A stretch of DNA of 27,631 bases from Candidatus Helarchaeota ASGARD archaeon Hel_GB_B (GTDB lineage: Archaea > Asgardarchaeota > Lokiarchaeia > Helarchaeales > HEL-GB-B): NCBI GenBank assembly GCA_005191425.1, contig SUPR01000045.1:1-27631 (forward strand), given 5' to 3'. Positions 2,211 through 6,802 of this stretch are shown piece after piece. Under the pieces are notes generated by a model that was given only the letters and a program-made list of their open reading frames with translations, did no database searches and was not told the DNA's origin. How positions within the stretch are numbered: the stretch's first letter is position 1; each line of letters opens with the position of its first letter. Made by a program: the position numbers and the translations under genes.

Positions 2211-2227
2211 TTTTTTTTAAAAGAAAA
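2211..2227. terminator. Putative bidirectional oligo-T terminator between convergent ppaC and tRNA-Leu
   Basis: T8 run on the + strand (2211-2218) right after the ppaC stop, and TTTTCTTTT on the - strand (2219-2227) just after the tRNA 3' end. Confidence 0.4.
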
Positions 2228-2236
2228 TTATTTGAG

Positions 2237-2358
2237 TGCGGGGAGTGGGTGTTTCGGAAATTAATCATTCGAACCCACGCAGGCTTTCGCTGGTATAAAA
2301 ACCATCTACGCCACTGGGTCCTAAGCCCAGCTCCTTTGACCAACTCGGACATCCCCGC
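2237..2358 (-). tRNA. tRNA-Leu(UAG) with two non-canonical introns (variable arm 2285-2305; T-loop 2251-2267); CCA not encoded
   Basis: Acceptor stem GCGGGGA/TCCCCGC plus discriminator A, D-arm TCCGAGTTGGTCAAAGGA, anticodon arm CTGGG-CTTAGGA-CCCAG, T-stem GTGGG/CCCAC. Removing 21 nt and 17 nt restores an 84-nt archaeal tRNA-Leu with variable arm GGC-GTAG-GCC. Confidence 0.93.
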
Positions 2359-4076: not shown

Positions 4077-5741
4077 GTGATTAAATTGACTAAATTTCGC
4101 TTTAAAATAATCGTTCTCGGCGATGCTAATTCTGGAAAAACCAGCTTTCTAAATAAGTATATTTATGGAAACATGGGGCAGACCCGTCCCAATATTTTTA
4201 TTGGAACTGAATTTTATTCTAAAGATTTAAATATTGATAATTTTAATGTGTCACTTATTTTCTTTGATCCTGGTGGGCAGAGTATTTCCATTTTAAGAAA
4301 TTTGTATTATAAGGACGCTTCTGGGGTTATTTTAACCTTTGATCTTACAAATAGAAAAACATTTGAGAAACTTCCAGAGATTTTTGATCATGTACGGTTA
4401 AATGTTGGCCAAATACCATTTCTCTTGATTGGGACTAAAGCTGATTTAATAGATAAAAGAGAAATTGATTTTGCTGAAGCAAATAAATTTGCCACAGAAA
4501 ACGGAATTATTTATTTTGAAACATCTGCATTCACTGGAATGGGTATAAACGAATCAATTGGATATTTAATAAGGTTAATGATTGGATATTCGACTAAACA
4601 ATTTGAAAAAGGTTCTATCTATCTAGACTTTGAAGGTGGAAAAGCGATTTTATCAATTTCCAGTATAGAAAACTCAAAAATCGAAGTACGTTTATCTACT
4701 CCCCATGGACTTAGTGATTTAAAATCAATTAGAGAGATAGAACCTAATAAATTAAAAGAAATCAACGATAAAATTACTGAATTTACTAATTTATTTAATG
4801 CTTATGTGCGTGCTAAACGATCTGGTTCTGACCAAATTGAAATGCAAAATCATGAAAAAAAGCCCATGACCGAATTAATAAAACTCGGTAAATCAATTCA
4901 TGATTTTGTAATTCCCAATGAAATTAAAAATCAAGTTGATAGTATAAGAATTCCAATAGAATTATTAATTGATGAGAAATTTCTCGGTATATATTGGGAA
5001 TTAATGAATGATGGTAAGGAATTTTATTGTCTTAAATCAATTGGTCGAAAAATTGATTCTAAAAAATTCTTTTTACCAGATATGGATATTTCTACTAAAA
5101 AGTCTATCAATTTTCTAGTAATAGGCAATCCCAGGGATAAAGACCCCGATTATTCTTTACCAGCGGCATCTAAAGAAGTGGAAAAAATAGTAAAATTGCT
5201 AAAACAATTTAAGAATGTTAAGGTCACTCTTTTACATGGAAAAAGTGCGACCAAATCAAATGTTCTAAAAGAATTACGAAAAGGAATTTATAATTTTATA
5301 CATTTTGCTGGTCATGCATCATTTAATATTGAAACCATTGAAGAGAGTAGTCTCTTACTTGCTGACGACCTTTTATATGCGAAGGAAATTATGGAAATAC
5401 TTAGAGATTCGCCACCCATATTAGCATTTATTAATGCATGTGAATCATCAAAAACTATAATACCTGATGGCGAAATTTCATTTGAATCAAACATTTATGG
5501 TCTAGCGTCCGCTTTTTTTAGTGTTGGGACTTTTTATATTGGTGCGCTCTGGCCTATACATGATGATAGTGCCATTGAGATTGCCAGAGAATTCTATAAA
5601 CGACTTTTAAACGGACAATCTATTGGATCTGCGCTTCAAAGTGCCAAATTATATGTTAGAGAAAAATATGGCTATACAGAAATTTCTTGGTTAACTTATA
5701 TTTTATACGGCGACCCGACTTTAACATTAAAAACTTTCTAA
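4077..5741 (+). CDS. Rab-like small GTPase fused to a C-terminal CHAT (caspase/separase-clan) protease domain
   Basis: G1 GDANSGKTS, switch I IGTEF, G3 DPGGQ, YYKDA, LTFDLT, G4 TKAD, G5 ETSA in aa ~1-170. CHAT motifs IYWELM, IHFAGH (His413), FINACES (Cys455), IGALWPIHD and YILYGDP. The true start may be TTG at 4086. Confidence 0.88.
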   Translation: MIKLTKFRFKIIVLGDANSGKTSFLNKYIYGNMGQTRPNIFIGTEFYSKDLNIDNFNVSLIFFDPGGQSISILRNLYYKDASGVILTFDLTNRKTFEKLPEIFDHVRLNVGQIPFLLIGTKADLIDKREIDFAEANKFATENGIIYFETSAFTGMGINESIGYLIRLMIGYSTKQFEKGSIYLDFEGGKAILSISSIENSKIEVRLSTPHGLSDLKSIREIEPNKLKEINDKITEFTNLFNAYVRAKRSGSDQIEMQNHEKKPMTELIKLGKSIHDFVIPNEIKNQVDSIRIPIELLIDEKFLGIYWELMNDGKEFYCLKSIGRKIDSKKFFLPDMDISTKKSINFLVIGNPRDKDPDYSLPAASKEVEKIVKLLKQFKNVKVTLLHGKSATKSNVLKELRKGIYNFIHFAGHASFNIETIEESSLLLADDLLYAKEIMEILRDSPPILAFINACESSKTIIPDGEISFESNIYGLASAFFSVGTFYIGALWPIHDDSAIEIAREFYKRLLNGQSIGSALQSAKLYVREKYGYTEISWLTYILYGDPTLTLKTF

Positions 5742-6442: not shown

Positions 6443-6802
6443 ATGGAAAAAAGCTTTTTTCGAGAACCAGCATTAAAGAAAAGGATTAATGATATTACGA
6501 AGGATGACTCTAGAGTCCAAGTCATCGGGACAATTGTTAAATATATCCCAGGTCTTGTTCATGACAGCAATACATTAAGTGAAATCATATTAAGTGATGA
6601 AACCGGAATTATTACCATATTAGTGGACGAATATTTAGATGGTAATTATAAAAAAGGGGACAAAATTAGAGTTTTTGGTCATATAGAGTCAAATGATGAT
6701 GACAAATTAAATCTTAATGCTGAAGTAATTCAAGATATGAACAGTTTAAATATTGAACTTTATAAAAAAATTAGAGAGTTAAGGACTAGAATTAAAGGTT
6801 AG
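6443..6802 (+). CDS. Single OB-fold protein, replication protein A small subunit (RPA14/Rpa3-like)
   Basis: Pattern KKRINDI..DDSRVQVIG, LSDETG, GDKIRVFGHI, LNAEVIQDM..L.IELYKKIREL matches the Thermococcales RPA14 type as I recall it. It sits directly upstream of PCNA. Confidence 0.7.
   Translation: MEKSFFREPALKKRINDITKDDSRVQVIGTIVKYIPGLVHDSNTLSEIILSDETGIITILVDEYLDGNYKKGDKIRVFGHIESNDDDKLNLNAEVIQDMNSLNIELYKKIRELRTRIKG

Follow-up and report, generated by a model that had tools for sequence, protein, structure and literature searches.

A tRNA-Leu(UAG) gene of a Helarchaeales archaeon with probable introns in the variable loop and the T-loop

RESULTS

A tRNA-Leu(UAG) gene interrupted at two positions

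The minus strand of positions 2237 to 2358 of the window (the whole 27,631-nt stretch of contig SUPR01000045.1 that we analyzed) very probably contains the only functional tRNA-Leu(UAG) gene of this Asgard archaeon (order Helarchaeales), with a precursor of about 122 nt and two introns that would be spliced by proteins at bulge-helix-bulge (BHB) motifs. We assigned this reading a probability of roughly 0.88. The gene and its boundaries were located in the sequence, both intron positions were conserved in related genomes together with co-varying helices, and genes for the splicing enzymes were present in the genome.

The locus runs from position 2358 to position 2237 (122 nt) and is G+C-rich. 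Exon 1 (53 nt; positions 2306 to 2358, minus strand) contains the 5' strand of the acceptor stem, the D arm, the whole anticodon arm (loop CTTAGGA, anticodon TAG), and the 5' strand and loop of the variable arm through GTAG. It is followed by intron 1 (ATGGTTTTTATACCAGCGAAA, 21 nt; positions 2285 to 2305, minus strand), which lies in the variable loop and has a relaxed, HBh'-like BHB motif. Exon 2 (17 nt; positions 2268 to 2284, minus strand) contributes the 3' strand of the variable arm, the 5' strand of the T stem, and nucleotides 54 to 59 of the T-loop (TTCGAA). Intron 2 (TGATTAATTTCCGAAAC, 17 nt; positions 2251 to 2267, minus strand) interrupts the T-loop at 59/60 and has a strict BHB motif. 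Exon 3 (14 nt; positions 2237 to 2250, minus strand) supplies nucleotide 60 of the T-loop, the 3' strands of the T stem and acceptor stem, and the discriminator A73; CCA is not encoded. Ten nucleotides 3' of the discriminator is a T-rich tract (TTTTCTTTT; positions 2219 to 2227, minus strand) that is likely to be an archaeal oligo-T terminator, and T-runs were also found downstream of all of the Leu orthologs.

Removal of the 21-nt and 17-nt inserts left an 84-nt sequence with a G+C content of 64%, compared to 28% for the genome. ARAGORN identified this spliced form as tRNA-Leu(tag), a canonical class II tRNA in which the acceptor stem has 7 bp, the variable arm reads GGC/GTAG/GCC, and the T-loop is TTCGAAA. 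When either insert was removed by itself, ARAGORN found no valid tRNA. All four stems of the spliced form were intact, U33 was present, and the T-loop was conserved; moreover, the 14-nt variable region (3-bp stem and GTAG loop), A73, and the TAG anticodon were those of a class II tRNA-Leu. The anticodon loop was unbroken, meaning that there was no 37/38 intron. A first-pass annotation of this DNA, which was made from the sequence without database searches, had described a tRNA-Leu(UAG) gene with inserts at 2285 to 2305 and 2251 to 2267 and none at 37/38, and its coordinates and sequences proved to be correct.

We also searched metagenomic data for the locus. A 504-nt contig (X4) from a separate marine-sediment metagenome run, which had its own sample and study, covered positions 2100 to 2462 with two differences, neither of which was listed inside the gene. 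Because this separate contig carried the same interrupted gene, the inserts did not arise through misassembly of a single sample. The remaining metagenome pieces that matched the locus were paralogous Leu genes. No RNA run that includes the locus was found for positions 1800 to 2800.

Two protein-coding genes in the window are described here as observations on the surroundings of the tRNA gene. The plus strand of positions 569 to 2209 encodes a DHH-DHHA2 protein with inserted CBS and DRTGG domains, an architecture that looks like that of a CBS-regulated family II pyrophosphatase; this gene ends 28 nt from the 3' end of the tRNA gene on the opposite strand. The plus strand of positions 4077 to 5741 encodes a 554-aa protein in which a Ras/Roc/Arf-like small GTPase domain (residues 10 to 167) is fused to a CHAT protease-like domain (residues 270 to 546). 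Small GTPases of the Ras/Roc/Arf-like type are typical of Asgard archaea.

Standard tRNA finders miss the gene

The first-pass annotation had warned that standard finders might miss or mislabel the gene, and this was the case for both of the finders that we ran. ARAGORN found no tRNA in the unspliced window, and a search of the window with the Rfam tRNA model at the gathering score (29 bits) returned nothing. In E-value mode, the Rfam model gave a sub-threshold match of 23.5 bits that covered only positions 2288 to 2358 and aligned part of intron 1 as the 3' strand of the acceptor stem.

BHB motifs at the exon-intron junctions

In the BHB geometry that we used, each 3-nt bulge is cut between its second and third nucleotides. 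With this geometry, the T-loop intron had a central helix of TTCG:CGAA in which all four positions were paired, bulges of AA^T and AC^A, an outer helix that corresponded to the 5-bp T stem, and an inner helix of 2 bp (GA:TC). The variable-loop intron had a central helix of GCGT:GCGA with three of four positions paired and a G.A mismatch, bulges of AG^A and AA^G, a 4-bp inner helix of TGGT:ACCA, and an outer helix of 1 bp. The motifs computed here agreed with the first-pass description, in which the T-loop intron was strict, the variable-arm intron was relaxed, and cleavage of the latter restored the canonical GGC-GTAG-GCC arm.

We used two types of simulation to estimate how often such motifs arise by chance. 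When the introns were shuffled in place (20,000 trials), the helices were matched in 0.6% of the trials for the variable loop and 0.16% of the trials for the T-loop. When inserts were placed at random on the contig, the corresponding motif class was reached in 0.003% of placements for the T-loop and 0.34% of placements for the variable loop. A chance origin of the inserts was excluded based on these shuffles, the difference in G+C content between the spliced form and the genome, and the presence of introns at both sites in orthologs (see below).

When this gene is taken alone, the variable-loop motif is weak. Our intron-aware parser found two other placements of the variable-loop intron, 16 nt and 20 nt in length, that tied with the 21-nt placement in total score, and the 16-nt placement had four of four central pairs and a 3-bp outer helix. 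In addition, neither BHB motif appeared in its canonical register in the minimum free energy (MFE) fold of the precursor. In the variable arm, the MFE fold kept the mature GGC:GCC stem and stacked the intron hairpin on top of it; in the T arm, the register was off by one nucleotide. The 21-nt boundaries were chosen over the tied placements because they were the ones selected by the comparison with relatives described next.

Both intron positions are conserved in related leucine tRNA genes

The 11 genes for Leu(UAG) or Leu(CAG) that we recovered in a DNA search of 60 related genomes are distributed over six genomes from the order of the window's genome (families f1 to f3). The T-loop intron was present at 59/60 in all 11 genes. 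It ranged from 16 to 30 nt, its outer helix was the 5-bp T stem in each case, and its central helix had 3 to 4 pairs. The inner helices of these T-loop introns were 2 to 9 bp long and differed in sequence, yet they remained paired (GA:TC, GAGT:ACTC, GGAT:GTCC, and CAAAATGA:TCATTTTG versus CAAGATGA:TCATCTTG).

An intron was found at the same site in the variable loop in 10 of the 11 genes. These introns were 21 to 30 nt in length and their 5' bulge, AG^A, was invariant. The central helix had four of four pairs in eight of the 10 genes and three of four pairs in the other two, and stronger (4/4) motifs than that of the window's gene occurred at this site in the G001 ortholog, the Leu(CAG) gene of the window's genome (G000), and the f2 genomes. 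According to our scoring script, the inner helix was 4 to 8 bp long in eight of the 10 genes, and its sequence was different in each of them. The remaining two genes, L008 and L029, received a script score of 1 bp for the inner helix; offset helices of 6 to 7 bp were visible by eye in these two introns but were not computed.

The one gene that lacked the variable-loop intron, the Leu(UAG) gene of genome G005, was particularly informative. It reads GGCGTAG|GCCTGC with no insert at exactly the predicted junction, and it retains a 19-nt T-loop intron. Excision of the 21-nt insert from the window's gene reproduces, letter for letter, the uninterrupted variable region of the G005 ortholog (TGGCGTAGGCCTGC), and exon 1 is 96% identical to that ortholog over its 53 nt. 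We read the G005 gene as a probable case of intron loss. The ortholog in G001, a genome of the same genus as the window's genome, has both introns with different sequences (26 nt and 19 nt) and a downstream flank that resembles that of the window. In the class-level relatives of family f4, which is represented by at least 12 genomes, the Leu genes are compact (84 nt) and both introns are missing.

Overall, the exons were 92 to 96% identical to those of the orthologs and the introns had diverged. The combination of conserved exons, drifting introns, and preserved helix geometry is characteristic of introns that are spliced and structurally constrained. Three families had both sites occupied in their UAG and CAG isoacceptors alike, and we lean slightly toward the view that the leucine tRNAs of Helarchaeales have had these two non-canonical introns for a long time and passed them on by vertical inheritance. 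If so, these genes would form a dated natural series on the tolerance of the class II variable arm for a relaxed BHB motif with an exon-mimicking intron 3' end, at an intron site that is not illustrated in published Asgard censuses.

A difference in gene arrangement was also observed. In families f2 and f3 (L005/L032 in G005, L006 in G004, L007 in G002, and L029 in G006), another tRNA gene (...GGGTTCAAATCCCGG...GGCCC) ends about 15 to 20 nt before the start of the Leu(UAG) gene, which suggests a tandem tRNA pair. This upstream tRNA neighbor is absent in the window's genome.

Alternative interpretations of the inserts

We considered two other interpretations of the 21-nt insert. It could be that only the T-loop insert is an intron, and that the 21-nt insert stays in place as an extended variable arm of a 105-nt tRNA-Leu. 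Such a molecule would be in keeping with the MFE fold, in which the insert hairpin sits on the GGC:GCC stem, and with a variable-loop BHB motif that is relaxed, with three of four central pairs and one outer pair; the absence of a proper Leu tRNA in the ARAGORN search after removal of intron 2 is equally expected of an overlong arm. An extended arm is nevertheless difficult to reconcile with the relatives, as the insert is missing from G005 at precisely this junction and the class-level relatives have a standard 14-nt variable region. Moreover, the sequence and the length of the insert (21 to 30 nt) drift among the 10 genes, but the AG^A bulge, the 4-bp central helix, and the inner helix are kept in most of them. 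A bulge and helices that are kept while the insert drifts point to constraint on an EndA substrate and not to an identity-bearing arm. Variable-region introns are also known from other Asgard genomes (bioRxiv 10.64898/2026.10.13.758758), and we consider the extended arm to be very unlikely. Even less likely, in our judgment, is a genuine variable-loop intron that is cut elsewhere, at the 16-nt or 20-nt BHB-like placement, which would produce a different mature variable region. These placements tie with the 21-nt placement in total score, and the 16-nt one has the better central and outer helices noted above, but the 15-nt or 19-nt variable regions that they would leave match no relative. In contrast, the 21-nt excision yields the G005 variable region and falls at the same site as the 4/4 motifs of G001, the G000 Leu(CAG) gene, and the f2 genomes.

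It was also conceivable that the locus is a decaying pseudogene and that a different tRNA, either undetected or missing from the assembly, reads CUA codons, as the assembly is 94% complete and our tRNA census (see below) is incomplete. The intact stems, A73, U33, and conserved T-loop do not fit with decay, and neither does the high identity of the exons alongside diverging introns. The need for the gene could be examined as well. A BLAST search with the spliced sequence identified three Leu-like loci in the assembly, namely, this gene (C124, UAG), a gene with three introns (C166, CAG), and an uninterrupted gene (C98, GAG), and a pattern scan of the 94%-complete assembly for other UAG anticodon arms in a tRNA-like context found none but this locus. 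Thus, an intronless second Leu(UAG) gene, which the first-pass annotation had named as evidence that would count against its reading, was not found by BLAST and pattern scan in this assembly. CTA is a common codon in the genome; it accounts for 10.6% of Leu codons and occurs about 10 times per 1,000 codons in 1,006 long open reading frames. Under standard decoding rules, reading of CUA requires a UAG anticodon. Because this is the sole Leu(UAG) gene that was found and about one codon in 100 is CUA, the gene is very probably functional, and of the alternatives considered here, a pseudogene is the least likely. Finding the gene also has value for annotation: without it, the genome seems to have no CUA decoder.

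The genome encodes splicing enzymes that are probably suited to relaxed motifs

The first-pass annotation had inferred a splicing endonuclease of broad specificity and had proposed EndA subunit architecture as a check. We found two EndA paralogs in the genome, in the regions of C36 positions 44408 to 44659 and C98 positions 28593 to 28853, both of which match PF01974 and PF02778. The first paralog, EndA alpha (L001, 192 aa; ...VYEHGPGIDHAPF...VRKKF), aligned end to end with the Aeropyrum pernix protein 3P1Z_B (E value of 2.5e-42). It retains the Tyr/His/Lys triad, and the His residue in GPGIDHAPF is conserved. Its loop GIRKPKSTDFDRP aligned without gaps to the Crenarchaea-specific loop of 3P1Z_B, DVEKPRGADFEGP, with K44 of the latter aligned to K and R46 aligned to K, and the segment IRKPKSTDF aligned to VEKPRGADF. 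The match to the Methanocaldococcus jannaschii alpha4 enzyme (1A79) starts only past the loop, from residue 58. The nearest named relatives of the EndA alpha gene were those of Asgard metagenome-assembled genomes.

The second paralog, EndA beta (L002, 198 aa), has Ala at the position of the catalytic His125 of the M. jannaschii enzyme, as expected of a structural subunit. It was closest to proteins of Methanopyrus kandleri and M. jannaschii and not to crenarchaeal beta subunits. The architecture is that of a putatively catalytic alpha subunit with the Crenarchaea-specific loop and a putatively non-catalytic beta subunit that lacks the catalytic His residue, and it is consistent with the broad specificity that had been inferred. 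The ability to cleave motifs that are non-canonical or relaxed is conferred by the Crenarchaea-specific loop, and by K44 above all (Hirata et al. 2011; PMC3241643). Asgard EndA has been reported to contain the same loop (L1; Kaneta et al. 2018; PMC5829648). The genome also encodes RtcB, which was identified by a match at 9e-171.

Proposed splicing route

Based on these features, we propose a route in which transcription, cleavage at the bonds described above, ligation, and the order of intron removal are all predictions from sequence. In the T arm, T-loop nucleotides 54 to 57 would pair with the CGAA at the 3' end of intron 2, and this helix would be stacked on the T stem to form the strict BHB motif; the splicing endonuclease would then make one cut in each 3-nt bulge. 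In the variable arm, the 5' strand of the variable stem and two loop nucleotides (GCGT) would pair with the GCGA at the 3' end of intron 1, which would mimic the exon strand GCC. The inner helix of intron 1 would be an intron-internal hairpin, and the outer helix would be nearly absent from the resulting relaxed motif. Motifs of this type require an EndA with the Crenarchaea-specific loop. The alpha/beta EndA pair would cut the precursor, RtcB would join the three exons, and CCA would be added afterwards. The predicted product is an 84-nt class II tRNA that would read CUA (and CUG).

Introns are widespread in the tRNA genes of the genome

The assembly consists of 182 contigs that total 3.54 Mb, is 94% complete, and has a G+C content of 28%; a search of the assembly with the Rfam SSU models found no 16S rRNA. 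Its placement in the Helarchaeales is based on the Ras-CHAT fusion protein, the relatives of EndA alpha, and a genome of the same order (G003) that matches Candidatus Helarchaeota archaeon Meg19_1012_Bin_504 with 100% identity over 534 nt. Rfam identified 16 tRNA genes in the genome and ARAGORN identified eight, all of which were uninterrupted. We performed an intron-aware census in which G+C islands were searched for acceptor pairs, BHB candidates were placed between them, and the spliced candidates were checked for a cloverleaf. Spliced products were required to have a G+C content of at least 53% and a long variable arm was allowed only for Leu and Ser; these filters removed low-G+C false parses with four introns.

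The census contained 27 high-confidence tRNA genes with 26 anticodons. At least 21 of the 27 genes were interrupted, and six had two or three introns. After in silico splicing, ARAGORN agreed with 26 of the 27 genes. The commonest non-canonical site was 59/60, which was interrupted in at least eight of the 27 high-confidence genes (Ala-GGC, Ala-TGC, Glu-CTC, Gly-GCC, Arg-TCT, Thr-GGT, Leu-CAG, and Leu-TAG). Variable-region introns were further found in Leu-CAG and Ser-CGA. The census is incomplete, as about 20 anticodons, such as those for Phe, Lys, Asn, Pro, Trp, and Tyr, are missing; the missing genes probably have acceptor-stem introns or weaker motifs, or lie in unassembled sequence. The genome has a heavily interrupted tRNA gene set of the Asgard type, in which most genes are interrupted and many are interrupted at non-canonical sites.

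The Leu(CAG) gene of the same genome (L027; C166, positions 6544 to 6699, minus strand) has three introns: a 34-nt intron at 37/38, a 23-nt intron in the variable loop, and a 16-nt intron in the T-loop at 59/60. The exons of the Leu(UAG) and Leu(CAG) genes differ at four of 83 positions, and the introns are alike only in their helix-forming ends. Four interrupted tRNA genes (Gly-TCC, Gly-GCC, Val-GAC, and Ala-GGC) are clustered on the minus strand of contig C165 (positions 693 to 2661), with introns in the variable region, in the D arm, and at 59/60. The T-loop intron of the Ala-GGC gene in this cluster is 55 nt in length.

DISCUSSION

With the two introns that we propose for the Leu(UAG) gene, the Helarchaeales join the Asgard lineages in which tRNA genes are heavily interrupted. 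These introns also provide a clean comparative series, in which a gene has the intron, lacks it, or has one at the same position with co-varying helices, for examining how an Asgard alpha/beta endonuclease acts on a relaxed motif in the variable arm.

Our EndA proteins can be compared to the (alpha-beta)2 EndA of A. pernix (3P1Z). The two systems are alike in the Crenarchaea-specific loop, with Lys residues at the positions of K44 and R46 in the Helarchaeales protein, the catalytic His residue, and a second paralog that lacks this His residue; a heterotetramer is predicted for the Helarchaeales enzyme. They differ in that the Helarchaeales beta subunit is not closest to crenarchaeal beta subunits.

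Multi-intron tRNA genes of Thermoproteales were reportedly described by Marck and Grosjean in 2003 and by Sugahara and colleagues in 2008. The genes described here resemble those of Thermoproteales in having two to three BHB introns per gene, in the T-loop being among the non-canonical sites, in the mixture of strict and relaxed motifs, and in the EndA with the Crenarchaea-specific loop. In contrast to Thermoproteales, our genome belongs to another phylum, is AT-rich, and has shorter introns. It also showed no sign of recent intron copying between genes, because the Leu(UAG) and Leu(CAG) introns share only their helix-forming ends. The first-pass annotation had stated that multi-intron, non-canonical tRNAs were best known from Thermoproteales and some DPANN; this background is established as far as it goes but is out of date, as Asgard cases are now documented.

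In Asgard archaea, 92 to 95% of tRNA genes were found to be interrupted, and more than half had several introns (Valentin-Alvarado et al. 2024; PMC11291895). A recent preprint on 90 genomes reported strong canonical motifs for T-arm introns and weaker motifs for variable-region introns, median intron lengths of 22 to 23 nt, two EndA paralogs in most genomes, consistent with (alpha-beta)2, and about 30% of introns missed by standard software; class II variable-arm insertions were omitted from its position figure (Goswami et al. 2026; bioRxiv 10.64898/2026.10.13.758758). Helarchaeales are not mentioned in the main text of either of these reports (PMC11291895 and bioRxiv 10.64898/2026.10.13.758758).

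The tRNA genes analyzed here are like these published Asgard sets in having multiple short introns, non-canonical sites among which the T arm is prominent, genes that are missed by finders, and two EndA paralogs. They differ from the published sets in that the order is Helarchaeales and in that the class II variable-loop site is not illustrated there. As such, the Leu(UAG) gene is a typical case of a pattern that is already in the Asgard literature, and it changes no concept. Two points are mildly new: the order-wide keeping of both intron sites in UAG as well as CAG isoacceptors, except for one gene that lacks the variable-loop intron, and a clear case of exon-strand mimicry by the 3' end of a variable-loop intron.
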